This document shows, piece by piece, positions 4,150 to 57,738 of a stretch of DNA of 64,000 nt. The notes below the pieces were generated by a model, which was not told the origin of the DNA, searched no databases, and worked only from the letters and a program-made list of their open reading frames with translations. The DNA comes from Ktedonobacteria bacterium (lineage in GTDB: Bacteria > Chloroflexota > Ktedonobacteria > Ktedonobacterales > JACDGC01), in NCBI GenBank assembly GCA_027459525.1, contig DAIDIC010000198.1:45785-109784 (forward strand). Reading direction: 5' to 3'. The translations under genes were made by a program, and so were the position numbers. The number at the start of each line of letters is the position of its first letter. The stretch's first letter is position 1.

Positions 4150-4176
4150 TAAAGTTTGATATCAGAGCGCCGATTA
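4150..4176 (+). promoter_or_regulatory. Sigma-28 (FliA)-type promoter: TAAAGTTT-N11-GCCGATTA
   Basis: TAAAGTTT at 4150-4157, an 11-nt spacer, and GCCGATTA at 4169-4176, compared with the enterobacterial consensus TAAAGTTT-N11-GCCGATAA (one mismatch). It lies 40 nt upstream of ATG 4216 of the chemoreceptor gene. fliA is encoded in this window. Confidence 0.6.
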
Positions 4177-4215
4177 GATAGGTATCCTCTGCATACTAAA
4201 GGATTCGTATTTGAA

Positions 4216-6564
4216 ATGTTGCAAAAAGAACGTACATTTTCTGACAATCACCAGGATGATTCATTTCATATCCTGAACCAGCGAGACATGTTCGCGTTTA
4301 CCGTTCCTGTCATCGTTTGGCTGGCTAATATAACAACCATGGTGCTGACTGGCCCATCGGGCATAACAATGTTTATTTTAGCCAGTATCCTTTTCTTCAT
4401 TCCCAGTGTATGGGTTACCCAATGGCTTGGCAAAATGTTTCCCCATCAATCAGGCCCATTTATGTGGGCAGCGCGTACACTGGGTTATAAGCGAGCCTTC
4501 TTCCCCAGTTTCAGCATATGGCTTGGTGTCACTATCGGCGCAATCGGCACGCTTACAAACACCATGCTTACACTTCAATATTTTAACGCGAACTGGTTTG
4601 CCACTCCGGTTTCCGAAAGTGTGGGCATACTTATTATGTTGGCGCTGGTAGCGGCCGTGTGCCTGATACCATTACAGCAATTGCGGCGTCTTGTTTTTGG
4701 CTCTACAATGATATACCTAGCAGCCATCGGATGTCTTCTAGTCACTATCGTTATTTGGACAATGAGCGGCCACCTGCCGCAGACATCGTTCCACTGGCCC
4801 GATCAATGGCAGATTTCTTCATCAACCATCGGAACATTCGGGCTGATTGTTTTTACAATAGTCGGTGTCAATATGGGCATGTCACTTGGCCCGCGTATGG
4901 CAGGATCACGCAATGAAGCAAAGCGTTCAATGCAATTTGTATGGTGGGTTTTTGCTGCAGTTATAGTCATGTATCTTGTCGCCGACTTTGGCGCATTGAT
5001 CATCGATAACTCAGTTCAACTTACAACACCGTTTGTTTTTACCGATACTTTTGCAAATATGTTTGGCTCAGGCGCCGCCAATTTCTTTAACGTTGTTGCT
5101 GTTGTCATAGATTTCATGATATCGGTTGTGTATCTTATATTACTGGCGTATGTTCTGCATTCATTCGGCGAACACAGTTATTTGCCGCCTTGGTTTGCAA
5201 AGACCACCAGCCAGCATGTCCCACGCAACGCAATTTTAGGGCAAACAGTCAGCATTGGCGCATTTGTCACCATAGCGTATCTCATTCTTCCGAGCATTGC
5301 CCCATTTGGGCAAGACGCAGTCAGCCGATTTACCATTATCACCAATATTTTAAACGCCAGCTCCAGCATTATTTGGGGATTGGGCATGCTTATGCTGTTT
5401 GTATTTGGACTAGCGGCAGTAATGCGCTTTACACATATGTTATCCGGAGCGCGCTGGCCCATGTTCATCATGTCTTTAGCCGCCATTCCTACAATGATGT
5501 ACAGCTTTTGGCTCACGCTTACAGCTTCATGGATCCCAACATTCATGGGAAACAATGCTTGGTTTGAAGCAACTATTGGAGTTACTATATTTTTACTGCT
5601 TGGCGGGACAATCCTTGGCGAAATATTGCGTATGCATGGTGTTGTACGTGAGCAAGACAGATTGCATGCGCAATTAAAAACAACATTCCAGCAAATCGAT
5701 GCGTTGATTAGAAACATCGGCAAAATGAGCCATGACGCAAATTCAGCCATGACACATATTCAAACCGCAACGCAAACTGTTTCTCGAACAACCGGCAGCC
5801 TGGCGCAATCAGTTGAAGAAGTAGCAGCCACCAGTTTGGAACAGGTAAGTACGCTGAAAGAGGCGACTAATACTATTGACTCCATGATTCAGCATACCGA
5901 CACGATGAAAGTAACTCTTGGCTCGATGATTCAAACAATGGGTCGGTTGCAGCAGCAGTTTCAACAAAGCGTCCAGCAAGTTCAGAAACTGGACCAGCGA
6001 TCTGTGGAAATTGGCCAGATAGCTAATCTTATTGATGAAATTGCTGATCAAACAAATTTGTTATCGCTCAATGCGGCAATTGAAGCTGCGCGCGCAGGTG
6101 AACAGGGCAGAGGATTTGCCGTTGTTGCGGGTGAGGTGCGCAAACTTGCCGAAAGAACCGCTAACTCGGTGCGAGAGATTAACGGGTTAATTCACCATAT
6201 TCAAAGCGAAATGGCAGAAACACTTGTTTCTATGGAATCTTCAAAATCTGAACTGCAATCGAGTGTCGGACAGCTTGAAACAGTAAACGGCCAAGTAACA
6301 GAGGTTGTTTCAAACGCAGAGTCTACTCAGATAATGCTGCATCAAGTAAGTGAAGTAACCAAAACAAACAGCGATTCTGTCCGGGAAATGTCTTCGGTTA
6401 TGGATACAACATCACAGCAGATCTCTGCCATTGAAGATTCAATGGGATTAATTAAAGATCTGGCAAGTCAACTGGAAGACGCCGAGAAGATTCACAACAA
6501 AAAATCTGATGTTACATCACCGCAACAAGTAAGTTTCTATGGCGAATCTGTAAGAGCGGCGTAA
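4216..6564 (+). CDS. Methyl-accepting chemotaxis protein with an N-terminal ~12-TM APC-family amino-acid-permease-like domain
   Basis: The C-terminal part has the canonical MCP hairpin [43 protein letters not shown]. The N-terminal ~480 aa has multiple hydrophobic helices with APC-like motifs ([19 protein letters not shown]; [21 protein letters not shown]). The ORF-track TTG start at 4156 overlaps the sigma-28 promoter, so I prefer ATG 4216; ATG 4288 is also possible. Confidence 0.8.
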
Positions 6565-7879: not shown

Positions 7880-8467
7880 TTATTGAAAATTATTCAGACC
7901 TCGCAACACCTCATTAATAACGTAGCGCAACACCTCAAGAACCCCTTGCCCATTTACGGCAACTGCTTCAAAACTGCGTTTTCTATTCGTATTGAGGTAT
8001 TGCTCCAGTATCGGCACGGGAAGCACATCAGGAACATCTCGTTTATTCCACTGCATGGCTATAGGAAAGTCTGCAGGATTTTTATGTTGGTTGCGCAGCT
8101 GATCATTCAGCTCGGTCCAGCTCTCAATATTTTCCCGCAGCTTATTTGCTTGGGAATCTGCGACAAAAACAACGCCATCCACTCCGCGCAGCACCGCAAT
8201 TCGGGTTTGTTGATATAACACCTGCCCCGGAACGGTATACAACTGAAATTTTATATTATACCCATGTACTCTGCCCATTTCCAGAGGCAACAAATCAAAA
8301 TACAGGGTTCTTTCCGTTTCGGTATCGATAGATACCATACCGCCGACATCTTTTGGATTTACTACATTATGTATATAATGCAGATTTGTTGTTTTTCCGC
8401 TTAAACCTATTCCATAATACACGATTTTGCAGCTAATCTCGCGTTTTGAGCTATTTATTATTGGCAT
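7880..8467 (-). CDS. mglA: MglA-type Ras-like small GTPase (motility/polarity GTPase family)
   Basis: Collinear with Myxococcus MglA as I recall it: INSSKREISCKIVYYGIGLSGKTTNLHYI, LYTVPGQV, VDGVVFVADSQ, QWNKRD. Confidence 0.8.
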   Translation of the reverse strand: MPIINSSKREISCKIVYYGIGLSGKTTNLHYIHNVVNPKDVGGMVSIDTETERTLYFDLLPLEMGRVHGYNIKFQLYTVPGQVLYQQTRIAVLRGVDGVVFVADSQANKLRENIESWTELNDQLRNQHKNPADFPIAMQWNKRDVPDVLPVPILEQYLNTNRKRSFEAVAVNGQGVLEVLRYVINEVLRGLNNFQ

Positions 8468-8710
8468 GTTATTATTTTTGCTCCTTCGTGTACCGGTTAC
8501 CTCTTTGCGGAATTATCACCATACACTATACAAAGTATATCATATTTCATATCCCAGAAATTTAGATACGCAAAAAAAATTTACGGAATAAATATCGGCT
8601 GATTAAGGAAAACTGGCGTTTTTTTTGCGATACAGTTTTGTGCTGTTCAATTTTTCATAAGAAACAGCCGGAGTTATATTTGTTTTTCAGCAAAACATGG
8701 AGGAAAGAGC

Positions 8711-11224
8711 GTGTCAAACAATAATTTTTCACAAAAACTGCCCCTGCACGACAGTGTAAACACTGTTTTGCAAGAAGCGCGACAATTTGCTCTCAAATAT
8801 CATCACGCCTTGATAGATTCTGAACATTTGTTGCTGGGTATTATTGCCGCGCAAAACCCGCTTATTTCGGCGGCGCTGCAGTCTGTAAAAACATCCGCAC
8901 GCAAATTGCGCAGCGCAGTTCTGTTTGTTATTACACATGATTCCTGCACAGTTGATCCGCAAATAGGCAATGAAGTTGAAAGAATATTGGATCGCGCAAA
9001 TTATGAGGCGATAGAGATGATGGCGCGGGAAATTAAAATTGAACATGTTTTTTTAGGAATGTTGCAAGAAGAGGAAACCATTGCATATGCTATTTTACAT
9101 GAGTTGCATATTACTTATGACAACATATTTCCAGAATTAGTAAAATTAAGCAAAATGAATTCATCGGCGATTGTAACATTAAAAGAATCCACAAACCGCT
9201 TTCAGCTGACACCAACATTAAATATGGTAAGCAGAGACCTTTCTGCCGAAGCGCAAGCCGGCAGGCTGGAACCGCTTATTGGCAGGGAATATGAACTGGA
9301 ACGGGTAATGCAAACCTTAACACGAAGATCAAAAAATAATCCAGTGCTCATCGGCGAAGCCGGCGTTGGTAAAACCGCCATTGCCGAAGGACTGGCGCAG
9401 CGCATTGCAGATGGAAACGCGCCGCCCGAATTGCTGCGCCAACGTGTTGTATCGCTGGATACGGGGCTGCTAACCATTGGCACCAAATTCCGCGGCGACT
9501 TTGAGGAACGGCTGAAAAGTCTTGTTGCTGAAATTATCAAAGTTCATAATTTAATTATCGTGGTAGATGAACTGCATACCCTCATCGGTTCCGGTGTGGC
9601 AGAAGGCTCCATAGACGCGGCAAATTTACTTAAACCGATACTTGCCCGCGGTGAATTTCGCTGCTTTGGCGCAACAACTTTGGACGATTATCGCAAAACA
9701 ATCGAAAAAGATCCTGCGCTGGAACGCCGCTTCCAACCAATCTTCATCCGGCCAAGCACACCAGAAGAAACAAAATCTATTTTATTTGGGCTGCGCCCGC
9801 GTTATGAAGCTTTCCATCGTGTCGCTATTTCCGATGAGGCTATTGAAGCGGCTGTAAAATTGGCAGATCGCTATGTGCATGTGCGGCAGTTCCCCGATAA
9901 AGCGATCGATTTAATTGATGAAGCCGCTGCGCGTTCACGAGTGCAACGCTCCGTTATTCCCGCGGAAGCCCTAGCCCTATCAGATTCTTTGGATTTAGTG
10001 CGCTGTGATAAAAATATGGCAATTGAAAAAGGTGAGTTTGCCATAGCCACAGCGCTTTGGAAAAAAGAAAAGGCTATTCGCCGGCAAATTTACGCAGCGG
10101 ATTCAGAATGGCGAACACAACGCGCCGGCAACAGTTTTGCAGAATTGAAAGCGACAGATGTCGCCGAAATCGTATCCAGCCGAACTGGAGTCCCAGCCAT
10201 TGCTGCAACAGAACAAGAAGCTGAACGGTTGTTACGCTTAGAAGAATTACTGCATGCGCACATTGTTGGGCAGCAAAAAGCGGTTTCAGCAACCGCACAG
10301 GCTATTCGACGCTCACGCGCCGATATCCGAGATCGGCGGCGGCCTATCGGCTCATTTATTTTTGCCGGGCCAACCGGGGTTGGAAAAACCGCATTAGCTA
10401 AAGCGCTGGCAAAAGCGTTTTTTAACGATGAACAAGCAATTGTTACTATCGATATGTCTGAATTTACTGAATCACATTATGCCGCCCGCTTAGTTGGCTC
10501 TCCGCCGGGATATGTCGGATACGATCAGGCCGGGCAGTTGACGGAAGCTGTAAAACGGCGGCCATACACTATTGTGCTGCTGGACGAAATTGAAAAAGCG
10601 CATCCGCGGATTTATGATTTATTGCTGCAAGTTTTAGAAGATGGCTGTTTAAGCGACGCTAAAGGGCAACAAACAGATTTCAGCAACACGATTATTATTA
10701 TGACAACAAATATCGGCGCACAGTTAAAACCGTTTTCTGGCGGTTTTATTGAATCAGAGGAAAATCGAACCCATAACGGCAAAGAAACCGCTGCCCAAAA
10801 ACGGCTGAAACGCGAACTGGCGCAAACATTTAAGCCGGAGTTTCTGAACCGCATTGATAGTATTATTGTGTTCGATCAACTTACCCGACAAGATATGCGC
10901 CAACTGTGCGATATTGCCTTAGAGCCGCTGATACAGCGCATGCGCGATCGCCTGTATGATCTGCAGATTGACGCCGCCGCGCGTGAAGAGCTGGCCCGGC
11001 AGGGATATAGCAGTGAATATGGCGCGCGGCCGCTGTTGCGAATGATTCAAAGCAGCATTGAGGATGTTTTAGCGGAAAAAATTCTCCGCAATGAACTGCA
11101 GCCCGGGGGAGGCATATCAATAAGCGCCATTGACGGCAAATTTATCTTCACAATCTCTCCAAAACATGCAAAGCAAATCACCGTTGCGGCTGAGTCGGCT
11201 CCGGCAAATTTGCGGAAAGAATAG
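8711..11224 (+). CDS. clpC: ClpC-type AAA+ chaperone / Clp protease ATP-binding subunit
   Basis: Two Clp_N repeats (SEHLLLGII; IEHVFLGML), two Walker A motifs ([15 protein letters not shown]; [15 protein letters not shown]) and a short middle domain (ClpC-like rather than ClpB-like). GTG start with GGAGGAAAGAGC upstream. Confidence 0.85.
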
Positions 11225-11738
11225 CAATAACAGTTTCCGCAGCGGCGTCGGATTCTGTCTCGCCATCGCCTATATATTCATTTGGCGCGGCGCGCATTTT
11301 AGCGACACAACGATGTCGCAGCAACGGCGCCGGCGCATGTTTATCGGGCGCCGGCGAGACAGGAGCAATGCCAGCGGCCCAGCCTTGCCGACGATAATCG
11401 CGGGGATTTTCCTGCGCTGAAGCAGCGTTTTCAAATGAAGAAACTTCATAGCCCCGCACGCGCATCCACATTTTTAGCTGACCCACCGTGGGAATCCACA
11501 ACGTATCAGCCTTGGCCACACGCGCCGGTGGCCATTTCTTTGCTATATCTGACAAGGTTACCCACCCAACAGCGTCATCAGCGTCTGTTACCAACGCAAA
11601 TCCGGCTGAGTCTAAACCAAGATACGACGCGCCAATTGGCGCAGTCCAGTCACCCGGCTGCGCCTGCCAAATTATACCGGCGGTTTTCAGCCGGCGCGCC
11701 ATAACAATGCTTACAAAATCATCTTGCATAATTGACAC
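11178..11738 (-). CDS. Hypothetical protein (186 aa)
   Basis: Longest ORF in this interval with plausible composition, but no family recognised. Its 3' end overlaps the clpC 3' end by 47 nt (convergent). Confidence 0.4.
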   Translation of the reverse strand: MSIMQDDFVSIVMARRLKTAGIIWQAQPGDWTAPIGASYLGLDSAGFALVTDADDAVGWVTLSDIAKKWPPARVAKADTLWIPTVGQLKMWMRVRGYEVSSFENAASAQENPRDYRRQGWAAGIAPVSPAPDKHAPAPLLRHRCVAKMRAAPNEYIGDGETESDAAAETVIAILSANLPEPTQPQR

Positions 11739-11862: not shown

Positions 11863-14800
11863 TTATCCCTGACTCGTATTGATATTTGCTCCTAACATAG
11901 CGTTGCTGTGCTCACTGGGAACGCAGACAATGGAGTTATGGATTGCAATAACCTCGAATTGCTGCGAATAGAATAATTGTTTTGTTTCCGCCGTCATATC
12001 CCAACTTTCCTGTTCGAGAGATTTAAACACAATAAATGGCCGTACATGTTGTAATAGCTGTGTCAAAAACGCTAAACCGCCCGGCATTTGTGAATCATGC
12101 GGTAAAACTACCAGCGCAACGGCGCGGATATCCTTCAGCATAAAGGTAAGTTGAAACAGATTGCTCAAATTTCCAACATGATACACATAGGGTTCGTTTA
12201 CTGCAAATTTTGGCGGCTGTTTATAGAAAAATTCGCCAAATTCCAAATCGGGATACCCCTCAAAAACAACCATCTTTTCCAGTAACTGCAACGATTGGAT
12301 GTTTGCGCGAATAATCGATGCGTTGAATATGTGCGGCTCAAATAAAATCGCTTTATCAATGCGCGCGGTTTGCGTCAACATATGTATAGAATATGCGCCG
12401 GCTCCGGCATCAACATCTATCATAACACTATGCTCCGGCAATATTTGCGCAATGACGCTCAAAGCAGGCGCATCTTTGTGAAAAGCGCGCAGATGTCCGG
12501 CAAAAATTTTATTTGCCAAAATCTGTTTTTCGTTTTGCAGCAAAAATGCAGTCGTTTCCGGTTGAGTCAGAATAACAGCCCTGCCAAAGAAATCTTTATA
12601 TATGTGTATATTTTGAACTGATTCAAGCTGCAGCGCGCCAACATATAAATCTTGCTGCAATTGATCTATAAAAATAAATGTTGTAGTTTTGCCAAGTCCG
12701 GCCTGAATAGATTTAAATAACATGGTTAAGTAAGGTGTGTCATCAGAGTTGAAGTGCAGCCACACCGAAGTCTGCTCATCTGCCGTGTTATTTTCAATAA
12801 TCTGAAATTCGTGGTTATTGCTGACAGAAATACTGTATGGCATAGCAGAATCAATAGATAACGCCGCAAAAACGTCTGCGACAATAAGTTTTCGATGCGT
12901 GGCGTTTTGCAGATAATCTGACAGCTTTTTTATCACCTTGACAGACTCCTGCGGAGCCACAGTGTGCGAGAGATCATCAATATTCTGGGGTAAAGATTGA
13001 TAGATGCGCCCGATTATTTCAATTATCATATCTTGCATATATTCTATACCATGCAACGACGCCTTTACTGAATAGATATGATCTCCATAATCGGTATCTA
13101 ATTGGCTTAATTTTTCTTTTATTGCGTCAATATGGTTGCCATAATCTTGCAGCATAGTATTTAAAGTGTTTTTAAGCGCAACAATATGGTTGCCATAATC
13201 GGTGTCTACTTGGCTTAATTTTTCCTTTATCGCAACAATATGGTCGGATAATTCGTTAACACGATTTTGCAGCGCTTGTGTTTCTTGCAAAAATAATTTG
13301 CGTTGCGGCGGTGTTTGCCTATCATTGCCGGCAAATTCCGGCGTATGTTGCTGTGCCTGCATTAACTTTCTAGTAATCTCATTATACATGGGCTGGCTGC
13401 TGTAATTATATAGCATTTGTTCTTGCAAGTTGCTTAGTTTCGCTTCCAGTTCGGCAACTCTGCCAGTCATTTGACGATATTCATTCAGTGAAATAACATT
13501 AATTGCCGCCTGTTGTTCACTCATCCGTCCAAGAGAAAATACGCGCACAGCAATGCGAAGCAGTGTGCCGATGCCTTTTTGTTTTTTAAAAGGTATCCGT
13601 TGATCACGTGTTCGTGTCCAATCCCATTTATGCAGCAAATCTTGATGAAATTGCGCAAACTCCGATGTATCTGCCGATGTTTGGCTGGGTGAAGGCAAAC
13701 CGGGTTTCGCGTCAATTTCATTTAACCGGTTGATAATAACTTTAGCGGCGGCCGACGCGCTATATTGCCTGCGGATATCTTTTGCCGCAATTTCGCCTTT
13801 TTGCTGCGCTTCTTCCGGATGTTCAAACACATGGCGCATTAACCGCGCGGCGTGTTCAATATTTGGCTCGGCCCAAACAAATCCCGGCTGATATACTTTC
13901 GCGCAATCGGGATGGTAATGATGCTCTTCCAACGTAATTGTGCGGATCTCAAAATCTACCGGATAGGAATTTTCCAGCGTCATATAGTCGGTGTTGCCGG
14001 AATACGCGGTTGCGATAACCGGCTTGCCAAGGTACATAGCCTCTGCCATACCCAAACCAAAACCTTCTGCTCGGTGCAGAGAAACATAGGCGTCGCAGCA
14101 AGCAAGCAAATCATTCATCTGTCTTCGTGTCAGATACGATTCAATAAGCATTCCCCCTACATTTTCCACCGCAGTTTTCAGCGCTTTCCCAAGAATTGGA
14201 TAATTTTCCAAGTTCTGAGATTTGATGATCAGCAGCGGTTTCTCTCCGGGATAGTTCCAGAACGCTTTTTGAAAAGCTTGCACTACACCCAAAGGATTTT
14301 TACGTGATTCACAGGAATTTGCGTCAAATGTAAACAGAAAAATAAACACATTTGGGGGCAGATGAAGTTCTGCTCTATTCGGAGCTTCCGACGCTTCTAT
14401 CAAAATTGGCATTGGAATAACAGTAACAGGCGCTTGTGCGTATGCTTCTAAATTTTGCTTGATAAACGTGGAATTAACCCATATTTCACTCACTCGATGA
14501 ATATGGTCTTTAAAAATATCAGCGACCTTTTCCAATTCCCACGCCCAAAACGCAATAGTATATTTATCTTCAGTCAGCTTAGTAAGCTCGGCGTCATTAA
14601 TCCACGGCATATCATTAATATTGTTTAAAAAAAGATTTATTGGATATGCGGAAGCGCGCGGCAGACCAACAAAACGCGCCGGCAGCGGCTTTTGAGGGTT
14701 CGCGCCGTAATAAATTTTTTCCCGATAGGAAACCGGAATATTTTCCCCTAAAAGCACATCAAATAAACGCGCCGCCGCCGTTACCAAACCAGTTTCGGAA

Positions 14801-16095
14801 CGCAAATCGCCAATAACATTCAGGCCGGAAACATATGTAAAAGGATTCCAATAAACAAGCTCTTTCTTGACATCAACTTGCTCCATCGATAATGTGTCTT
14901 GCACAATATGAATCAGTTTTTGTCCTATAAGATCCCATGAGGCGTTTTGTTGCATAAATTCACGCGCTTTTTCACCCGATGATTTTACAAGTGATGGATT
15001 TTCAGAAGCTTTTAAAAGATATTGAGTCAACTGCTGTGTTTCATGTGATGTATTGACTTCTATCCGCCAGCAATACGCGCTATCATATTCTCTAAACTGC
15101 GGAAGGTCGGAGGTAATAACCACCTTACCGGAGCCAAACGCCCGCAGCATCACCCCGGAAGTTTCCCCTGAAGTAGGCCAGCGCAAATTAACCACCAAGT
15201 CAACACTTTGCACATATTCCAGAAAAGAGTTCATATCTAAATTAGGAATAGAGATGACAACGTTGGTTAATCCCAAGGTTTTGATTTGTTTTTTAAGGTT
15301 TTGCACATATTCCTGCTCTTCTTCAAATCCAACAATCAGCAGGCGCGCATTGGGATTTTTCTTATAAAGCGTATGAAATGCATTGAGAATAATATGTATG
15401 CGTTTTGTATGGTTTACGCGGCCGAAAGCGCCAATAAGCAAATGATTATCAGAAAAATTGAATTTTTTTCGCAACTGCGCCGCAGCTTTTGAAGAAAACA
15501 CATCAGCGCCATGAAATATGTTATACAGCCGCGTATTAGGATACGCCTTAGCGTAAAACTCCTTGCTCCATTGGCTATGCACAACAACCGATAAACTGCT
15601 GTCAAAAACTCGTTTGGTAAGATGATAGGTTAACCTATCGGCGCGCTTATGCTGCTGCAACAATTTTTGCAGATTCTGTGCGGCCTGTTCTCCATGATTA
15701 TAGCGAACTTCGCTGAACAGTTTTGCGAGATCTTTCTGCCAAAGATAGCTATGAAAGTCATACAGCGACATATCATGCTGCAAAACAATTCCCGGATGGC
15801 TTAATGCGCGATCATAAATATATTTATGAAAAAAGGGATTATTCCCCATATTATATATATTGATATCAAATGGCGCTGTTTCGTTGCGTTCCTCATAATA
15901 ATCTTCGCTCCACACCAGCGAACCAATATGAGGAAACGCAGGAGGAAGAACAGCTTTATCAGTAAATATTTCTAAATCGCAATATTTAGCCAAAGCGGCA
16001 ATCAAATCTGTGCTATAGTCAGATATTCCGCTTTCCAAAGGCGGAAAAGGTGACCAATATGCAATACGATAGCTATTATTTTTCATAATGCGCAT
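11863..16095 (-). CDS. 1410-aa multidomain glycan-synthesis protein: two GT-B (GT4-like) glycosyltransferase modules, a coiled-coil/repeat region, and a C-terminal FkbM-type methyltransferase-like domain
   Basis: The N-terminal module begins YRIAYWSPFPPLESGISDYS. The second module contains SLHRAEGFGLGMAEAMYLGKPVIATAYSGNTDY (EX7E-like GT4 core). Residues ~870-1010 are heptad-rich with 18-19-aa DYGNHI repeats. The C-terminus has VMIDVDAGAGAYSIHM...ILFEPHIFN, resembling FkbM-family motif I. Confidence 0.75.
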   Translation of the reverse strand: MRIMKNNSYRIAYWSPFPPLESGISDYSTDLIAALAKYCDLEIFTDKAVLPPAFPHIGSLVWSEDYYEERNETAPFDINIYNMGNNPFFHKYIYDRALSHPGIVLQHDMSLYDFHSYLWQKDLAKLFSEVRYNHGEQAAQNLQKLLQQHKRADRLTYHLTKRVFDSSLSVVVHSQWSKEFYAKAYPNTRLYNIFHGADVFSSKAAAQLRKKFNFSDNHLLIGAFGRVNHTKRIHIILNAFHTLYKKNPNARLLIVGFEEEQEYVQNLKKQIKTLGLTNVVISIPNLDMNSFLEYVQSVDLVVNLRWPTSGETSGVMLRAFGSGKVVITSDLPQFREYDSAYCWRIEVNTSHETQQLTQYLLKASENPSLVKSSGEKAREFMQQNASWDLIGQKLIHIVQDTLSMEQVDVKKELVYWNPFTYVSGLNVIGDLRSETGLVTAAARLFDVLLGENIPVSYREKIYYGANPQKPLPARFVGLPRASAYPINLFLNNINDMPWINDAELTKLTEDKYTIAFWAWELEKVADIFKDHIHRVSEIWVNSTFIKQNLEAYAQAPVTVIPMPILIEASEAPNRAELHLPPNVFIFLFTFDANSCESRKNPLGVVQAFQKAFWNYPGEKPLLIIKSQNLENYPILGKALKTAVENVGGMLIESYLTRRQMNDLLACCDAYVSLHRAEGFGLGMAEAMYLGKPVIATAYSGNTDYMTLENSYPVDFEIRTITLEEHHYHPDCAKVYQPGFVWAEPNIEHAARLMRHVFEHPEEAQQKGEIAAKDIRRQYSASAAAKVIINRLNEIDAKPGLPSPSQTSADTSEFAQFHQDLLHKWDWTRTRDQRIPFKKQKGIGTLLRIAVRVFSLGRMSEQQAAINVISLNEYRQMTGRVAELEAKLSNLQEQMLYNYSSQPMYNEITRKLMQAQQHTPEFAGNDRQTPPQRKLFLQETQALQNRVNELSDHIVAIKEKLSQVDTDYGNHIVALKNTLNTMLQDYGNHIDAIKEKLSQLDTDYGDHIYSVKASLHGIEYMQDMIIEIIGRIYQSLPQNIDDLSHTVAPQESVKVIKKLSDYLQNATHRKLIVADVFAALSIDSAMPYSISVSNNHEFQIIENNTADEQTSVWLHFNSDDTPYLTMLFKSIQAGLGKTTTFIFIDQLQQDLYVGALQLESVQNIHIYKDFFGRAVILTQPETTAFLLQNEKQILANKIFAGHLRAFHKDAPALSVIAQILPEHSVMIDVDAGAGAYSIHMLTQTARIDKAILFEPHIFNASIIRANIQSLQLLEKMVVFEGYPDLEFGEFFYKQPPKFAVNEPYVYHVGNLSNLFQLTFMLKDIRAVALVVLPHDSQMPGGLAFLTQLLQHVRPFIVFKSLEQESWDMTAETKQLFYSQQFEVIAIHNSIVCVPSEHSNAMLGANINTSQG
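13042..13248 (-). repeat. In-frame array of four 18-19-aa repeats, (D/N)HI-x-(A/S)-x-K-x-x-L-x5-DYG, within the coiled-coil region
   Basis: Protein: SDHIVAIKEKLSQVDTDYG / NHIVALKNTLNTMLQDYG / NHIDAIKEKLSQLDTDYG / DHIYSVKASLHGIEY. DNA repeats are visible (ATATGGTTGCCATAATC x2, GGCTTAATTTTT x2). Confidence 0.8.
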
Positions 16096-16108
16096 CCTCG
16101 GTTATCGT

Positions 16109-17563
16109 TTAATCGTCAAACTGATGAATCTGTATAAAATGAGACAAAATTTCCTGCAATCCTGCCATTTCCTGATAGGTATATCTATCTACTTCCCGCT
16201 GCCGTACATCAATTTTTCTGGAAAGCAGCAGCCGCACTATCCCTTTAACAAATCTTCCGGCAAGCGGCAGTTTGCTGAAGGCAAATGTATCTTGCCGCCA
16301 TTGCAGATATTCCAGCTGTTCAATAACATCTTTTTGTTTGGTTTGAATGTGCTCCAGCCCAAGCAGAGCGTTTCTTATAATCGCTTCTTTATTGCGATAA
16401 ATTTGCTTATTAAAAGCGCCGGCGCCAACAAGCTGTTGAATAGCTTGCAGCCGCTCGCCAATAACAGCGCTTACTGCTTCTAATGACAAATTTTTTCGGA
16501 TATCGGCTTGCGCATTTTGGGCTTTTTTTATGCGATCGTTGGCGTCATAAAAAACACGTTTCATTAACTCAACTGCGTGATCGACGCTGGGTTCTGCCCA
16601 CAAACTGCCCGGCGTATAGATATTGCGCAAATGCGGCTCGTCTTCAAAATCGCTGCTTTTAATAGTTTTCAAAGAATAATCGACAAGGTAACTGTTAGCG
16701 TTATTCATAAAATCTATATTTCCCGAATAACCAGTGCCTATAACCGGTTTTCCCAAATACATGGCTTCGGCAAGGCCAAGACCAAACCCTTCCGCGCGAT
16801 GTAAAGAAACATAGCAATCAATACTATTCAGCAGTCCCAGCATTTCATTACGTGATAAGGTATCTTCAATTAAAATACCTTTTAGCCGGCGCATTTCTAA
16901 TATTAATTTTTGCCGAGTTTCGGGATGGTGGCTAAGCTGATTCACTTTCAGCGCTAATAGCGGCCGTATCGGTTCATGCAAGGGAAACGCTTCCTCATAT
17001 GCCTTCATTATGGCCCAAGGATTTTTTCGGGTTACACTGGAAGCGGCGTCAAAAGAAAAGAAAAAGATAAAGGCGTTTTCCGGCAGCCGAAAATATTTTC
17101 GGTTATATATAGTATCGGTTTGAAACTCTATTACATGCGGCACAACCGTAATAGGAGCTTGGGTTACTGTAGCAAACGCTTCTTTAGCAAAAGCGCTGGG
17201 TGTCCAAATTTCATCAAAATATTCGAAATTTGTGTGATATTGGTCGGGGATAACAGGCAGCTCCCATACCCAATTTGCAATAGCGTATTTGTTTTTTGCC
17301 GCAATTTTTAGTTTTTCCGAGGCTTGAAGCTGAGAAAATTCATGCATATTCAACCCAGTCAAATTGATGGGATACAACAATCCCTGTTCTAATGGATGCA
17401 TTTCAGTTTCTTTAATTTTCAACGCATAGGGATGGTGAACAGGATAATAGCTCAGGGGAATATCTCTATACTTCATTGCGTCAATCATACCGCGCAGCGC
17501 AATACCCAAACCCGCATTTAAATATAAATCTCCGATAATATTAACCCCGGTAATTTTATCCAT
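16109..17563 (-). CDS. GT-B (GT4-like) glycosyltransferase with a C-terminal coiled-coil tail; paralogue of module 2 of the 1410-aa protein
   Basis: SLHRAEGFGLGLAEAMYLGKPVIGTGYSGNIDFMNNANSYLVDY...WAEPSVDHAVELMKRVF is collinear with residues ~410-780 of the downstream protein. There is a 13-nt gap to the next gene. Confidence 0.8.
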   Translation of the reverse strand: MDKITGVNIIGDLYLNAGLGIALRGMIDAMKYRDIPLSYYPVHHPYALKIKETEMHPLEQGLLYPINLTGLNMHEFSQLQASEKLKIAAKNKYAIANWVWELPVIPDQYHTNFEYFDEIWTPSAFAKEAFATVTQAPITVVPHVIEFQTDTIYNRKYFRLPENAFIFFFSFDAASSVTRKNPWAIMKAYEEAFPLHEPIRPLLALKVNQLSHHPETRQKLILEMRRLKGILIEDTLSRNEMLGLLNSIDCYVSLHRAEGFGLGLAEAMYLGKPVIGTGYSGNIDFMNNANSYLVDYSLKTIKSSDFEDEPHLRNIYTPGSLWAEPSVDHAVELMKRVFYDANDRIKKAQNAQADIRKNLSLEAVSAVIGERLQAIQQLVGAGAFNKQIYRNKEAIIRNALLGLEHIQTKQKDVIEQLEYLQWRQDTFAFSKLPLAGRFVKGIVRLLLSRKIDVRQREVDRYTYQEMAGLQEILSHFIQIHQFDD

Positions 17564-17581
17564 TGATAAACTTTTCCATCC

Positions 17582-19372
17582 TCAAAATTCTTTTTTAATA
17601 GTAACAGTAAATTGATAAAGCATTTGGCTGTATGATTGAAATGGTATTTTTTTCCTGACAATATCAAAAGATAACCGATATACCCCCGTCGTTTCCGGCG
17701 CGGCAACCACAATATGTGTTTTTATTTTTTTGCCGGCGCGGATATTCTCCATAAGCATAGTATTTTGCCCCGCTAAAGACGCCATTCGTTCGCCGGATAA
17801 CGGCAGATCGTCTTGCAGCCATGCGCAGCGCACATAATAATTTTCAGCGGCGTCGTTTGAAAATATCCACGTTTGTGAACCGATATTTTTCAATTCAATT
17901 TCGCAGTCATACTGTTTGCCGGATATCATTTCCAACGGTATTTTGCTATTGTTAAAATCTACGGCAAATGGCAGCCGATTCATTTTCAGAACGTTTTTGC
18001 CAAATTCAGCAAACTGCGCCGGCGCATGCCGCATGCCCATAAGCAGCGCTAAGCGTTTAACCGGCTTCCATAGCGCCAAAGCTAAAGCATAATAAAAAGG
18101 TTTTACGGCAGCTTTGCCGGTTTGTTTCATTGCAATAGCGCCGGCAAAATCGGGAGCGCGCTTAGGCAGTTGTACCCATTGCGCCATAGGCTGCAGCGAC
18201 TGTTCATCTGTATACATAGTTTGAAACAGCTGTTTTGCCTGCCGGCCCATCTCTTGCGCCATTGCCGGGCTGCAAATAAGAGATTCTATTGCTTCCGCCA
18301 ACGATTGTGAATTTTCGGGCAGATAAGCAACGCCGGCGCCGGCGGCAATAATCGATTGACCAAGTTCGGTAAGCGGCGTTACAATGCAGGGCAGACCGGC
18401 TTTCAACCAGTCTAAAACCCGATTTCTGCTGCCAAGCAGCGCTTCATACGTCATAAGGTCAGTGTTAACCGCCGCATTGCTTTCCAGCAAGTAATTGGGT
18501 AGATCTTCCGCCGGAACCCAGTTTAACAGATGATAGTGATTGGAAAACTCCGATTGTTTTGTTAGATATACAAACCTTTGAAAAGTAAGTTCATTATAGC
18601 CCTTAATGCCACCGCCGGTTGCCACAAATATAACATTGTGACGGCGGCGCATAATCGATTCTAACGCCTCAAAAAGTGTATCCACATCAGTCCATGTATT
18701 AAAACCACCGGTGTTCAGCAACACAAAATCATCATCTTGCGCAAGTATCCCTCTAATGCTTTTTCCAATTGGAGTCATTGCCGTATTTTCAAGGGTTACA
18801 GGAATAACATGCACAAACTCATATCCAACCGACGCTTTATTTAATCTTCCAACTGCGCCAAGCTCACCGATAACCGCCCATTTTTGCCGTTCTGAAACAC
18901 AGGATAAGCAATCTGCGCGGCGTATAACTGCATATTCCGTTTGCCAGCATTGCGCAATAAGCGAATCATCTCCCAATACGGCTGCTTGGGTTTGGGCTTC
19001 GGCCATTAAACTGCCATTCAAATCTGCCCAAAAAGGCAAATTACCAATATGTTGAACAGCAATTGCGGCGGAATGTGTGGAAGTCGCAATAGCGCACTGA
19101 CAATCAGAAATATATCTAGAGACGATTTTTCCTAAAGAATAGTTCCAAATATCCAGTGAAACAGTAATATAGGTCAGATTATTTTTAATATATTCAACAA
19201 CATCGGGAACAGCTTCCGGATAAGCAATCTGCCCGCGCTCACAGACAGCAATCACCTTATGATTTTGTTTGAGTAATACATCGATAAACCTCCACGTGCG
19301 TAAACTGTGGGCGTTCATTTGCATCTTTTCAAATGGAAGCGGCGCTACACCAAATAGTATTATTGTAGACAT
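17582..19372 (-). CDS. GT-B-like glycosyltransferase (about 410 aa) with a C-terminal ~180-aa domain that may be a beta-sandwich
   Basis: First gene of the operon, with an 18-nt gap to the next. It starts MSTIILFGVAPLPFE and has a Rossmann-like alternation and a late GT-B region (LLGSRNRVLDWLKAGLPCIV). The C-terminal domain assignment is a guess from the beta-strand-like pattern. Confidence 0.6.
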   Translation of the reverse strand: MSTIILFGVAPLPFEKMQMNAHSLRTWRFIDVLLKQNHKVIAVCERGQIAYPEAVPDVVEYIKNNLTYITVSLDIWNYSLGKIVSRYISDCQCAIATSTHSAAIAVQHIGNLPFWADLNGSLMAEAQTQAAVLGDDSLIAQCWQTEYAVIRRADCLSCVSERQKWAVIGELGAVGRLNKASVGYEFVHVIPVTLENTAMTPIGKSIRGILAQDDDFVLLNTGGFNTWTDVDTLFEALESIMRRRHNVIFVATGGGIKGYNELTFQRFVYLTKQSEFSNHYHLLNWVPAEDLPNYLLESNAAVNTDLMTYEALLGSRNRVLDWLKAGLPCIVTPLTELGQSIIAAGAGVAYLPENSQSLAEAIESLICSPAMAQEMGRQAKQLFQTMYTDEQSLQPMAQWVQLPKRAPDFAGAIAMKQTGKAAVKPFYYALALALWKPVKRLALLMGMRHAPAQFAEFGKNVLKMNRLPFAVDFNNSKIPLEMISGKQYDCEIELKNIGSQTWIFSNDAAENYYVRCAWLQDDLPLSGERMASLAGQNTMLMENIRAGKKIKTHIVVAAPETTGVYRLSFDIVRKKIPFQSYSQMLYQFTVTIKKEF

Positions 19373-19615
19373 ATGTTATAAAATCCTGTTGAATATAGCG
19401 TTACTATATCAAAATCGGCGTGATTTGGAAATATATTAGGAAATTTGCATTTATTTTGCAGGCTGCCAAGCTGTCGTTGAATCGGCGCGGGGCGATAGCG
19501 CACCGGTAAACATGATACAATAACACAGAAAACACCTTAATCGGAAATATTGCTGCGCCAGCGACGGAAAAGCACACAGCAATGTTCTGGCAAACGAAAT
19601 ATCGGAGGATGCGCT

Positions 19616-21421: not shown

Positions 21422-21455
21422 TTCAGCTATCCCCTGAATTACAAAAAATAACACG

Positions 21456-21491
21456 ATCGGGACGGATTGAAAATATCCGTCCCGATTTTTT
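21456..21491. terminator. Intrinsic terminator between convergent pepF and flgG
   Basis: A 12-bp stem (ATCGGGACGGAT at 21456-21467 / ATCCGTCCCGAT at 21475-21486) is followed by TTTTTT. Confidence 0.7.
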
Positions 21492-23220: not shown

Positions 23221-23952
23221 TTATCGCAAATCGGATCTGTCCGGTATACGAACGTTTTTTATAATTTTTATGGAGCGCCGCAGCAAATATCCAAGCGCCG
23301 CAAGCGACACTGCCAGCGCGGCATATTCCAGAATTGTTGTTCGCCAGGGCGCGCTGCTTGTGGCGGCAGGCGTTGAAGAAGCAGAGCTATAAGCGCTGCG
23401 CGGTTCAAATGGCGGATGCTGCGCATTTGGGCCGGTATCGGGCAAATGCTTCACTTGCTGAATAATACTGCTATTCCCTTGGAAATACCCTGCAATAGAG
23501 CGAATATTGCTTGGAGCCGTATTTGCCGCAGCCGCAGTATCCGGCTGCACAGTTATCATGATCATAGAATACCCTGTCGCTAAATGGCCGGGAAACGATT
23601 CATCAATGATAGCCGAGCCATCGCTGGCGGTATTAAATCTGCCAATCAGCATATCAGAGCCGGTTTGAGGATTAATAAACCAAGCAGCATAGATTTGGTT
23701 GGTTAACGGCGGAAGTTTTTGCACACTAATGCGAACTTCAAAGGCAATTGGCCAAACAAGCGCGCTACCGGTTGCAATGGTTGGCCCCCAATTAGAAAAT
23801 CCTGATATATAGGTTAAGGGAACAGAAATTGGCTGCTCTTCCGCATACGCCGGAGCCGGCGCAGCTACTGCAAAGAAAAGCGCGGCCACAACAAATAGAA
23901 CTACAGCACACATCCGTTGCGCTGATGTACTGATTATTTTTTTCAAATACAT
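23221..23952 (-). CDS. Exported, C-terminally membrane-anchored protein of unknown function in the flagellar operon; possible RskA-like extracytoplasmic domain
   Basis: Signal peptide (AVVLFVVAALFFAVAAPAPAYA/EE), a C-terminal TM plus basic tail (ILEYAALAVSLAALGYLLRRSIK), and a central IYAAWFINPQTGSDMLIGRFNTASDGSAII...MIMITVQPD that is reminiscent of anti-sigma-K RskA C-terminal domains (from memory, not searched). Confidence 0.5.
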   Translation of the reverse strand: MYLKKIISTSAQRMCAVVLFVVAALFFAVAAPAPAYAEEQPISVPLTYISGFSNWGPTIATGSALVWPIAFEVRISVQKLPPLTNQIYAAWFINPQTGSDMLIGRFNTASDGSAIIDESFPGHLATGYSMIMITVQPDTAAAANTAPSNIRSIAGYFQGNSSIIQQVKHLPDTGPNAQHPPFEPRSAYSSASSTPAATSSAPWRTTILEYAALAVSLAALGYLLRRSIKIIKNVRIPDRSDLR

Positions 23953-23971
23953 AGCACATCCTCCGATTTCA

Positions 23972-24841
23972 CTACGCAGATTGTTTCATAACGGCGCGCC
24001 GCACAGATTTTTTTGGCAAAGAAGCGCGGGTTGTCGGCTGTTCCATAAAATGGCTAAGATAGGAACGCATACGCAAAATGGCCTGAGTATGCAGCTGACA
24101 CACTCTGGATTCAGAAACATCTATCACCATTGATATTTCTTTCATCGTCAATTCTTCCATATAATACAGCTGCAACAGCAGGCGTTCACGCGCCGGCAGT
24201 TTTTCTAAAGCAGCTGCCAACACAGCTTGCATTTCACGCTGAATTGCTTCATCGTGCGGATCAGCCGAAGAATGATCTTCTAACAACTCACCCAATGTAG
24301 AAGTGTCATCATCAGATCGAGAGGACATTAATGGCGCATCAAGTGATAAGATAGCTGCATTTGCGTCTATAAGCATTTGCCGGTATCGTTCAATAGAAAC
24401 TCCACATTCCGCTGCAATTTCATCTTCAGTTGCTGGCCGCCCCAGCCGCTGCTCTAAATCGGCCAGTGTGCGCTCCAGTGCGCGGGAGCGAGCCATTGTC
24501 GAACGGCTCATCCAATTTAAAGTTCGCAATTGATCTATCACGGCGCCGCGAATGCGTTTCGTAGCGTAAGCCTCAAATTTTACCCCACGCGACGGTTCAA
24601 ACCGATCTAGCGCGTTAATCAGTCCTATCAGTCCATAGCTCACAAGATCGTCCTGATCAAGGGTAGTTGTTGTGGGAATATTCAACCTAGCAACAACAAA
24701 TGATACCATAGGCGAATATTTTTCGATCAAACGCGCGCGAATTTTTTCATCACGTGCTTCAATAAATTTTGCCCACAATATCTCGTCCTCTGTTTGAACA
24801 ACATCAGTTGAGCTGTGTTCCATATGCGCGATACCTTCCAA
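23972..24841 (-). CDS. fliA: Flagellar sigma factor, sigma-28 (FliA/WhiG/SigD family)
   Basis: Region 2 (DLVSYGLIGLINALDRFEPSRGVKFEAYATKRIRGAVID), region 3, and region 4.2 HTH (LTMKEISMVIDVSESRVCQLHTQAILRMR). ATG 24823 is an alternative start. Confidence 0.85.
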   Translation of the reverse strand: MEGIAHMEHSSTDVVQTEDEILWAKFIEARDEKIRARLIEKYSPMVSFVVARLNIPTTTTLDQDDLVSYGLIGLINALDRFEPSRGVKFEAYATKRIRGAVIDQLRTLNWMSRSTMARSRALERTLADLEQRLGRPATEDEIAAECGVSIERYRQMLIDANAAILSLDAPLMSSRSDDDTSTLGELLEDHSSADPHDEAIQREMQAVLAAALEKLPARERLLLQLYYMEELTMKEISMVIDVSESRVCQLHTQAILRMRSYLSHFMEQPTTRASLPKKSVRRAVMKQSA

Positions 24842-24869
24842 TATTAGGTTTTATAAAAAAACTAGTAGT

Positions 24870-55101: not shown

Positions 55102-55120
55102 AATGAGGAACCTTTAATCA

Positions 55121-57724: not shown

Positions 57725-57738
57725 ATTTTGCCCGTCTT

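Follow-up and report, generated by a model that had tools for sequence, protein, structure and literature searches.

The three-gene operon analysed here has, in our judgement, roughly an even chance (probability about 0.5) of encoding a cytoplasmic-face glycan polymerase complex of the ABC-transporter-dependent type, most likely for a cell-envelope polysaccharide of a Chloroflexi bacterium. An earlier note on this DNA had read its largest product, ORF3, as an enzyme that by itself polymerises, measures and methyl-caps a glycan. The succession of two glycosyltransferase (GT) modules, helical spacer and extra domain speaks for such a design, as does the family context, but the methyltransferase is its weak part. 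The genes and the promoter element lie as follows in the window, by which we mean the whole 64-kb stretch of DNA under analysis.

19403..19438, minus strand: promoter element upstream of ORF1; sigma-28-like TAAT-N15-GCCGATTT, overlapping a sigma-70-like TTTCCA-N17-TATAGT with TG
17582..19372, minus strand: ORF1, 596 aa; GT4 (~residues 1-400), hydrophobic/amphipathic segment (~420-446), C-terminal Ig-like domain
16109..17563, minus strand: ORF2, 484 aa; one GT4 module and a short tail (~residues 400-484) bearing the tail motif
11863..16095, minus strand: ORF3, 1410 aa; fused polymerase-tail protein
11178..11738, minus strand: conserved 186-aa gene, 124 nt downstream of ORF3

The ORF coordinates bear out the sizes and the tight spacing (gaps of 18 and 13 nt) first noted for the three minus-strand genes. 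The true start of ORF3 is likely Met4, giving 1407 aa, because the orthologue starts there and 9 nt then remain after GAGG. The downstream gene, 80% identical to its sister-species counterpart, found no match in a Pfam search; a terminator-like site was sought between it and ORF3 and none was found, and it may be a fourth operon member. The only full-length orthologue known for ORF3, P0001 (1400 aa, 80% identity), comes from a Chloroflexi MAG in which the synteny is the same. The full fusion is thus present in two species only, and conservation arguments for it are thin.

The following parts were delimited within ORF3 and ORF1.

14881..16095, minus strand: ORF3 GT4 module 1, residues 1-405; Glycos_transf_1 over 208-379, E=4e-28
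13711..14880, minus strand: ORF3 GT4 module 2, residues 406-795; EX7E (E677...E685) and RKNPLGV motif
13486..13683, minus strand: ORF3 tail motif, residues 805-870; W-D-W-x-R...P-F-K-K-Q-K-G-I-G-T-L-L-R-I-A-V-R-V-F
12976..13485, minus strand: ORF3 helical spacer, residues 871-1040; its parts are a helix (862-899), a Pro/Gly-rich linker (~900-930) and a proline-free amphipathic helix (931-1035)
13036..13251, minus strand: four 18-residue repeats (xHIxAIKxxLxxxDxDYG), ORF3 residues 949-1020
12511..12870, minus strand: ORF3 domain X, residues 1076-1195; small predicted alpha/beta domain
11866..12510, minus strand: ORF3 FkbM-like domain, residues 1196-1410
12334..12426, minus strand: motif I-motif II stretch, ORF3 residues 1224-1254; VMIDVDAGAGAY...ILFEP
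17603..17947, minus strand: ORF1 Ig-like (NBR1-FW-type) domain, residues ~476-590

By their profile matches all three proteins are GT4 glycosyltransferases, as had been claimed: Pfam Glycos_transf_1 scores 50.4 bits in ORF1 (E=2.5e-13), 33.0 in ORF2 and 98.4 in ORF3, each above the gathering cut-off of 26.4. The two GT4-like modules proposed for ORF3 are likewise present, in residues 1-795, module 2 giving a GT4-conflict/Glycos_transf_1 match over residues 657-785; they are 88% and 87% identical to those of the orthologue. Residues 1-800 form a two-module GT (di-GT) core belonging to a family of ~800-aa proteins, across which we identified invariant columns in both modules. ORF2, which contains the EX7E motif AEGFGLGLAEAM and belongs to a family of >2,700 members, aligns with ORF3 residues 422-878 (BLASTP, 34% identity over 472 aa, E=3e-83) and is, on that alignment, a paralogue of module 2 plus the beginning of the tail. 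ORF1 is 80% identical to its sister-species orthologue P0024. Its C-terminal region is weakly assigned to the Ig-like domains, with a weak match to Pfam N_BRCA1_IG (E=0.12) and local phmmer matches to Ig-like parts of other di-GT-locus enzymes (E=4e-4 to 0.4), including a methyltransferase-N_BRCA1_IG protein of the Actinokineospora locus L086; this domain is possibly a glycan-binding module.

The tail motif of ORF3 (87% identity with the orthologue) includes a candidate basic amphipathic helix at residues 837-857 (hydrophobic moment 0.59). Profile searches find the motif across phyla. It recurs in ORF2, in the separate tail genes of two loci from other Chloroflexi MAGs (L004 and L008) and in P0010 and P0013-19; the profile also detects the C-termini of actinobacterial GTmod2 proteins (E=2e-9 to 1e-2; six proteins outside the profile-building set, beyond the one used in it). 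The spacer that follows is 72% identical to that of the orthologue, and an indel of 7 residues falls wholly inside the linker. A heptad/repeat region of ~150 aa had been described here. The repeats are real: at 13085-13244 TRF detects 3.0 copies of a 54-nt unit, corresponding to the 18-residue protein repeats, and the hydrophobicity of residues 929-1040 is strongly periodic, at 3.55-3.6 residues (z=10.1 relative to shuffled sequences). However, the unit is an 18-mer with 3-4-3-4-4 spacing, not a plain heptad, and the linker interrupts the helix. A low-confidence AF2 model gives helices by DSSP over residues 811-1064; at pLDDT 35-37 the two AlphaFold predictions are unusable for the coiled coil and the distal fold. 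With its 3.6-residue period and one glycine per 18 residues, the 929-1040 segment could also be an amphipathic helix that binds a surface, or a helical bundle with breaks. Domain X (73% identity with the orthologue) is placed where other tails have their terminal domain, to which it shows no significant similarity (hhalign P=0.055).

Relatives of the di-GT, of ORF2 and of ORF1 occur in operons with wzm/wzt, initiating phosphoglycosyl transferases, methyltransferases or sulfotransferases, and all those examined outside Actinobacteria are accompanied by wzm/wzt. Six such loci are listed here.

L004: wzm/wzt, Bac_transf and methyltransferase
L005: wzm/wzt and sulfotransferase
L061, Pseudomonas fluvialis: wzm-wzt-FkbM with coiled coil-GT-sulfotransferase
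L087: wzm/wzt
L088: Bac_transf-wzm-wzt-x-GT with tail
L089: wzm-wzt-methyltransferase-GT

A 39%-identical ORF1 orthologue sits in a GT2-wzm-wzt-GT2-[ORF1-like]-GT-C-GtrB-like operon. In ~35 actinobacterial loci a GTmod2 protein, a di-GT and an FkbM methyltransferase occur together, the FkbM gene directly adjoining the di-GT, and both FkbM proteins inspected from these loci (2/2) contain a coiled coil. The earlier note had made co-occurrence of the parts a test of its reading. They are found together in relatives, split or fused, since in L004 and L008 the tail (motif, coiled coil, small domain) is a gene of its own right after the di-GT, while in P0010 and P0013-19 it is fused.

We therefore propose, at the probability given at the outset, the following arrangement for the polymerase complex. 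ORF3 would contribute two GT4 modules resembling a WbdA polymerase; ORF2 would add a third, paralogous one, probably docking on ORF3 through the shared tail motif; and ORF1, itself a GT4 with an Ig-like domain, would serve as adaptor or make side branches. Through its basic amphipathic helix the ORF3 tail motif may keep the GT modules at the membrane. The helical segment spans ~105 residues, ~15 nm if it forms a single unbroken helix, and would hold domain X and the FkbM-derived domain away from the active sites. Such a geometry would match that of the molecular rulers WbdD, WbbB and O7-ORF6, except that the order of the domains is inverted.

What the distal end does is less clear. The FkbM-type SAM-methyltransferase motif reported for ORF3 (VMIDVDAGAGAY...LFEP) is present, but the FkbM match falls far below curated thresholds: a Pfam check for Methyltransf_21 (PF05050) found no match in the C-terminal domain, and TIGR01444 gives 19.5 bits (E=1e-3) against a cut-off of 37.7, with E=0.1 for the orthologue. 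Compared by hhalign with 43 FkbM proteins of di-GT loci, the domain gives P=7.4e-5 and a probability of 62%, reversed and shuffled controls giving P=0.18-0.68; the FkbM link is one of profile-profile comparison only, and there it stands far above the controls. Residues D1227, A1230, G1233, E1253, P1254, N1258, R1263 and N1265 agree with columns conserved among FkbM proteins. In the D-x-G-A SAM loop, the Gly that is invariant in 41/41 neighbouring FkbM enzymes is Asp1229 in ORF3 and also Asp in its sole orthologue, whose motif I reads DVDAESGAY, the second loop Gly being lost there too (DAESG). The KIDVEG motif was sought in the domain and is absent. The C-terminal domain shares 63% identity with that of the orthologue and the GT modules 87-88%; judged by these values, it is the fastest-evolving folded part of ORF3. 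Because of the subthreshold scores, the missing loop Gly and KIDVEG motif and the fast evolution, methyl-capping by ORF3 alone is unproven and may not occur, and we think it doubtful that the domain is an active methyltransferase.

It is accordingly possible, if tentative, that the scaffold and polymerase are as proposed while the C-terminal domain is a pseudo-methyltransferase, the tail serving mainly oligomerisation, membrane tethering and recruitment of partners (ORF2 or others), with chain length set elsewhere or no methyl cap added. The substitutions and low scores above favour this, as do most related tails (L004, L008, P0010, P0014-19), which end in a small domain that is not recognisably catalytic. 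However, the N-terminal part retains eight of the nine positions conserved in FkbM, among them the ribose-binding Glu of FEP, the domain is under selection, being still conserved at 63%, and the FkbM enzymes adjoining relatives suggest that a methyl cap belongs to the pathway type. If inactive, the distal domain would be a non-catalytic remnant binding the chain end or a partner enzyme.

The surroundings of the operon supply further clues. No wzm/wzt and no ABC ATPase of any kind were found in the window, nor any initiating transferase, in agreement with the earlier note; a nearby ABC-2 pair in the sister species is unrelated to Wzm/Wzt. The claim that sugar-nucleotide genes are also missing is not strictly certain, given an SDR/epimerase-family gene at 30278-31276, whose similarity to dTDP-glucose dehydratases is weak. 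About 2 kb from the glycan operon lie flgF/flgG, fliA, flhA, flhB and fliR, a synteny preserved in the sister species, and the adjacent sigma factor gene encodes FliA/WhiG (TIGR02479, 250 bits). The promoter element of ORF1 is 100% conserved in the sister species, where distal intergenic sequence diverges, and a chemoreceptor gene preceded by a near-consensus sigma-28 site (TAAAGTTT-N11-GCCGATTA) shows the form of a FliA promoter in this genome. These features could point to motility-linked glycosylation under a FliA (sigma-28) promoter, with flagellin or another flagellar or surface protein as target, a scenario we consider improbable. The conserved element also fits a sigma-70 promoter with extended -10. 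Between the two operons lie a divergent M3 peptidase gene and, at 21455-21487, a strong bidirectional terminator, so that the flagellar genes are a separate, terminated operon; and the window holds no flagellin gene. Moreover, the examined relatives of all three genes lie in ABC-transporter glycan loci and none (0) in a flagellar locus, and a ~15-nm spacer would imply long chains, ill-suited to flagellin export through the narrow flagellar channel. Flagellin, once listed as a possible acceptor, is thus unlikely. A non-exported cytoplasmic methylated or acylated polysaccharide, like the actinobacterial polymethylated polysaccharides, would account for the absent transporter and has a parallel in L086, where GTs are accompanied by an acetyltransferase and two methyltransferases and no ABC transporter lies within 10 kb. 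It is very improbable, however, since L086 also encodes a protein with an AlgX-type (extracytoplasmic) domain, wzm/wzt accompany every non-actinobacterial relative examined, and an amphipathic helix with a coiled coil is typical of membrane-associated assembly.

The polymerase complex that we favour can be set beside several characterised systems. Geobacillus stearothermophilus WsaE is reportedly a multidomain rhamnosyltransferase-methyltransferase capping the S-layer glycan of a monoderm; it is not known to have a long coiled-coil ruler, and its likeness to ORF3 is one of description. The P. fluvialis locus L061, where an FkbM-coiled-coil protein adjoins a GTmod2 protein, has the gene order of the Pseudomonas syringae CPA 'TET' operon, wzm-wzt-O-methyltransferase-WbdA-like GT, which pairs a GT4 polymerase with a methyltransferase as terminator; some isolates carry these two genes as a fusion (PMC7820976). 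These Pseudomonas operons include a transporter and a canonical FkbM domain (PF05050, E=8e-27 in L061), whereas ORF3 and its window have neither. Compared by description, WbdA of Escherichia coli O9a and Klebsiella pneumoniae O3 is, like ORF3, a two-module GT4 polymerase, and the WbdD ruler, with its coiled coil and a membrane-binding amphipathic helix recruiting the polymerase, resembles the split di-GT and tail genes of L004 and L008; however, WbdA and WbdD are separate proteins, and the class I methyltransferase and kinase of WbdD are unrelated to FkbM (PMC3482155, PMC11231755).

Fused forms are described in K. pneumoniae (PMC11231755). WbbB (K. pneumoniae O12/Raoultella) is likewise a single polypeptide with two GT modules that polymerise, a spacer formed by a coiled coil, and an extra distal domain proposed as terminator (PMC11231755 and references therein), but that terminator is an N-terminal beta-Kdo glycosyltransferase with the GTs C-terminal, whereas in ORF3 the GT4 modules are N-terminal and the FkbM-like remnant C-terminal; its locus also includes a Wzm/Wzt-CBM exporter, which the ORF3 window lacks. 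In O7 ORF6, as in ORF3, a single protein joins two GT modules, a coiled coil and a terminator of methyltransferase type, another GT being encoded apart, and an Ig-like or CBM-like domain occurs in both systems. Its order, methyltransferase-kinase-CBM-coiled coil-GT2-GT2, is the opposite of that in ORF3, its GTs are GT2 instead of GT4, and its methyltransferase, shown to be active, keeps the glycine loop intact (PMC11231755), whereas ORF3 has lost the loop glycine. The chain-length-control design is thus already known from Klebsiella and E. coli, and in fused form from WbbB, O7 ORF6 and the P. syringae GT-methyltransferase genes (PMC11231755, PMC7820976); what is new in ORF3 is the inverted domain order.

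An earlier note on this DNA had described three tightly packed glycosyltransferase (GT) genes on the minus strand, and these hold up, with unchanged coordinates and intergenic gaps of 18 and 13 nt:

17582-19372 (-), ORF1, protein of 596 aa
16109-17563 (-), ORF2, protein of 484 aa
11863-16095 (-), ORF3, large fusion protein of 1410 aa

The true start of ORF3 is suggested to be Met4, since the orthologue starts there and a GAGG lies 9 nt upstream. The nearest relatives are Chloroflexi MAGs, and a full-length ORF3 orthologue occurs in only one other species (P0001; 1400 aa, 80% identity), hereafter the sister species. Its gene order is that of the window: fliR-flhB-flhA-PilZ-fliA-x-flgF-flgG, a divergent M3 peptidase gene, the three GT genes, a small ORF and a convergent clpC-like gene. 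In the window, a 186-aa gene (11178-11738, -) lies 124 nt downstream of ORF3 on the same strand, is conserved at 80% identity in the sister species, and converges on the clpC-like gene (8711-11224, +) with a 3' end overlap of 47 nt; it may represent a fourth member of the GT operon.

Identity of ORF3 regions to the sister-species orthologue P0001
GT module 1, 88%
GT module 2, 87%
Tail motif, 87%
Helical spacer, 72%
Domain X, 73%
C-terminal domain, 63%
Linker, 49%

All three proteins qualify as GT4, with scores against Glycos_transf_1 (PF00534) of 98.4 bits for ORF3 (over two stretches), 33.0 for ORF2 and 50.4 for ORF1, each above the Pfam gathering score of 26.4 bits. Both Pfam and the family alignment agree with the proposal of two GT4-like modules in the 1410-aa protein, module 1 spanning residues 1-405 and module 2 residues 406-795. 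Together these are the conserved core shared by two-module proteins of ~800 aa (the di-GT family), and two GT modules in one polypeptide are a feature of WbdA-type polymerases. In the C-terminal Rossmann half, the EX7E motif is complete only in modules of the second type, as module 1 reads E311-x7-A and ORF1 is atypical at this site. Module 2 has E677-x7-E685, both residues being invariant in the family alignment, and the motif of ORF2 is AEGFGLGLAEAM. ORF2 and module 2 are paralogues, and their similarity extends ~85 residues into the tail (34% identity, E=3e-83); proteins with a GT4 of this type are called GTmod2 below.

The tail downstream of the GT modules opens with a basic amphipathic motif (ORF3 805-870), with a hydrophobic moment of 0.59 over 840-857. 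This motif is also present in the ORF2 tail, in separate tail genes downstream of the di-GT gene in two other Chloroflexi MAGs, in the fused tails of further relatives (P0010 and P0013-19), and at the C-termini of actinobacterial GTmod2 proteins that had been kept out of profile building. Strongly basic and conserved across phyla, the helix at 837-857 is a candidate membrane-binding amphipathic helix near the polymerase end. A Pro/Gly-rich linker (~900-930) then precedes a helical segment (929-1040) with a hydrophobic period of 3.55-3.6 residues (z=10 against shuffles), free of proline over 931-1035 and containing four 18-residue repeats, seen in the DNA as a 54-nt repeat. The earlier note's heptad/repeat region is thus retained as regards repeats and helical periodicity, with an 18-residue unit in place of a plain heptad. 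The segment is compatible with a coiled coil of ~105 residues that contains stutters, for which a length of roughly 15 nm is inferred; the AlphaFold2 model of residues 790-1410, built from a two-sequence alignment (pLDDT 35), is too poor to confirm it. Domain X (1076-1195) sits where related tails have their terminal domain, and homology between the two, plausible by eye, did not reach significance (P=0.055).

The identity of the C-terminal domain is the crux of the earlier proposal, which took it for an FkbM-type methyltransferase, and the evidence for this identity is weak. The domain shows no match to PF05050 (FkbM) even at E<=10, and its TIGR01444 scores of 19.5 bits (window) and 13 bits (orthologue) fall below the cut-off of 37.7, only profile positions 1-50 being matched; the CbiT and RsmD profiles match within this stretch of ~55 residues too, with scores weaker still. 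An exhaustive phmmer search with ORF3 1040-1410 against 1.8 billion representative proteins gave a sole, spurious match of low complexity, and PDB sequence searches with the same region gave nothing. A profile built from 42 FkbM enzymes of related loci, excluding the orthologue, yields E=0.19. A jackhmmer search from a neighbouring FkbM protein had retrieved the orthologue at E=8e-13, which we discounted as an artefact because the orthologue had itself entered the profile; it is this value that drops to E=0.19 once the sister loci are left out. Profile-profile comparison with FkbM, on the other hand, gives P=7.4e-5 (probability 62%), against P=0.18-0.68 for reversed or column-shuffled controls, and because of this difference we accept that the domain is likely of distant FkbM ancestry.

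The aligned part retains eight of nine conserved FkbM positions (D1227, A1230, G1233, E1253, P1254, N1258, R1263 and N1265). Conservation includes the acidic residue ending beta-2 (xEP) and the N...R.N helix after it, LFEPHIFNASIIRAN aligning with the FkbM consensus EPiPa.a..LR.aR. The exception is the glycine of the SAM loop (D-[VIL]-G-[AS]), which is found in 41/41 FkbM proteins of related loci and is replaced by Asp1229 (D-V-D-A) in the window and in the orthologue, the latter also being without the next loop glycine (DAESG). Neither in the hhalign alignment nor by inspection does the KIDVEGAE motif or the C-terminal half of the FkbM fold have a counterpart. The AlphaFold2 model of residues 1185-1410, from a two-sequence alignment, is as unusable as the longer one (pLDDT 37). 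Of the methyltransferase proposal, then, distant ancestry is likely, while curated thresholds are missed and both the SAM-loop glycine and KIDVEGAE are absent. It is rather doubtful that the distal domain is still an active methyltransferase; the alternative is a non-catalytic module that would bind the chain end or a partner.

The genomic context of the homologues provides additional clues. The following arrangements were found in relatives:

L004 (Chloroflexia): methyltransferase, di-GT, then a separate 339-aa tail gene; within 10 kb a Bac_transf initiating enzyme, GT2s and wzm/wzt
L005: sulfotransferase, 1790-aa tri-GT with fused tail, GTmod2 gene, wzm/wzt
L061 (Pseudomonas fluvialis): wzm-wzt-FkbM (coiled-coil extension of ~200 residues)-GTmod2 protein-sulfotransferase
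L087: ORF1 orthologue within GT2-wzm-wzt-GT2-[ORF1-like]-GT-C-GtrB-like
L088 and L089: closest tail-bearing ORF2 relatives, downstream of wzm-wzt, with Bac_transf or methyltransferase

Furthermore, ~35 loci of Pseudonocardiaceae and other actinobacteria hold a conserved trio of GTmod2 protein, di-GT and convergent FkbM gene, and several of these GTmod2 proteins carry the tail motif. The single FkbM protein of the trio that was inspected (n=1, Actinokineospora, L086) has a coiled-coil C-terminus. The earlier note had considered that orthologues might show the parts as unrelated separate genes; since they recur together in relatives, either split or fused, their co-occurrence is supported.

FkbM proteins encoded next to GTmod2 or di-GT genes (L061 7271-8545; L086 14575-15498) have C-terminal coiled-coil extensions of ~80-200 residues. 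These enzymes look like an FkbM-based counterpart of WbdD, and no description of such a counterpart was found in the literature considered here. A further observation concerns an Ig-like domain (NBR1-FW / N_BRCA1_IG-type), which recurs in di-GT loci with weak similarity (E=4e-4 to 0.4):

Window 17603-17947 (-), on a GT4 (ORF1)
L086 12472-13542, on a class I methyltransferase (Actinokineospora)
L004 15715-16587, as a stand-alone protein (Chloroflexia MAG)

Its recurrence on different carriers suggests a shared glycan-binding module.

As had been claimed, the window encodes no Wzm/Wzt transporter: when the 64 kb were searched by tblastn with Wzm/Wzt and ABC proteins as queries, nothing matched at E<1e-3, and no homologue of any ABC transporter is present. 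A wzm/wzt exporter encoded alongside, a further feature of WbdA-type polymerases, is seen in six of the relatives (L004, L005, L061, L087, L088 and L089). In the sister species, an ABC-2 membrane/ATPase pair (L001 18023-19766) is inserted between the clpC-like and Arf/Ras-like GTPase genes, where the window has just 243 nt (8467-8711). We rejected this pair as Wzm/Wzt, given that the membrane subunit is unrelated, the similarity of the ATPase is only generic and the window lacks the pair.

The GT operon adjoins the flagellar operon, from which a terminator and a divergent peptidase gene separate it. This strong intrinsic terminator, bidirectional and with a perfect 13-bp stem (21455-21487), lies between the peptidase gene and flgG, where the flagellar operon ends. 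Upstream of ORF1, 36 nt (19403-19438) are 100% conserved with the sister species and can be read as a sigma-28-like TAAT-N15-GCCGATTT. We did not adopt a sigma-28 promoter as established, because the same conserved bases form an extended -10 sigma-70 promoter; FliA control of the GT operon is no more than possible. Flagellin, put forward earlier as a possible acceptor of the glycan, is unlikely: all homologue contexts examined are polysaccharide/ABC-transporter loci, and a flagellar neighbourhood is shared with the sister species alone.

Several other genes of the window deserve mention. A chemoreceptor (4150-6564, +) combines an APC-type AA_permease_2 membrane domain (residues 40-415) with an MCP signalling domain. 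Its listed TTG start is overlapped by a sigma-28 consensus that is nearly perfect (TAAAGTTT-N11-GCCGATTA, 4150-4178), and translation therefore probably begins further downstream. A small GTPase of the Arf/Ras family (195 aa; 7880-8467, -), encoded close to the chemoreceptor and flagellar genes, might regulate polarity or motility in the manner of MglA. In the flagellar cluster (23221-25739, -), the interval between flhA and fliA, usually occupied by flhF/flhG, holds the gene of a 289-aa PilZ-domain protein that is conserved in the sister species. Between fliA and flgF, a 243-aa protein begins with a hydrophobic, signal-like segment, continues with a region rich in Ser, Thr and Pro and has a further hydrophobic segment at its C-terminus; it has no Pfam match, and its gene is conserved in the sister species. 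Finally, three consecutive very large membrane proteins of 848, 867 and 1521 aa (52555-62304, -) with PMT/PMT_2 and DUF2298 domains (GT-C type) may constitute another glycosylation system of the window, one that depends on lipid-linked sugars.

In this context, we put forward a tentative scheme. The two GT4 modules of ORF3, together with the paralogous module of ORF2, would build a glycan polymer on the cytoplasmic side of the membrane, a step that homology and context support. The shared tail motif would tether the complex to the membrane and/or pair ORF2 with ORF3. The helical segment would hold domain X and the FkbM-derived domain ~15 nm away, such that only chains of sufficient length could reach the latter, a step proposed by analogy with WbdD, WbbB and O7 ORF6 (PMC11231755, PMC3482155). 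On the most far-reaching reading, ORF3 would be a self-contained, inverted polymerase-ruler-terminator, in which an internal amphipathic helix keeps the GTs near the membrane while the terminator occupies the distal, C-terminal tip. The FkbM-derived domain, with its Gly-to-Asp change, would have gained a new capping or chain-end-sensing activity, and FliA would switch the operon on, so that a surface glycan of defined length is made with the flagellum. To this combined reading we assign a probability of about 0.12.

The principle itself is not new, as both single-chain polymerase-ruler-terminators and fused GT-methyltransferase genes have been described. WbbB is a known example of the former, and Klebsiella pneumoniae O7 ORF6 joins methyltransferase, kinase, CBM, coiled coil, GT and GT in one chain (PMC11231755). 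The L061 operon belongs to the "TET" type known from P. syringae, where some isolates carry the GT and methyltransferase genes as a fusion (PMC7820976). Compared with the described single-chain systems, ORF3 has an inverted domain order, GT modules of GT4 instead of GT2 type, a conserved tail motif of its own, a spacer of 18-residue repeats and a degenerate FkbM-like end.

Most established cases of coiled-coil rulers that set the length of polysaccharide chains come from the O-antigen systems of Gram-negative bacteria. The present locus and its relatives suggest that this ruler logic is also widespread across Chloroflexota and Actinomycetota, in both split and fused form. Its elements there are a polymerase of GT4 type, the conserved tail motif, a helical spacer and, at the distal end, a modifying domain. 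ORF3 would be a compact single-chain version of inverted order, possibly with an inactivated methyltransferase, and its value is comparative. The phylum from which it comes is poorly studied. It offers a natural test case for whether the distal domain is needed for catalysis or merely as a sensor or scaffold, and for the role of the conserved tail motif.
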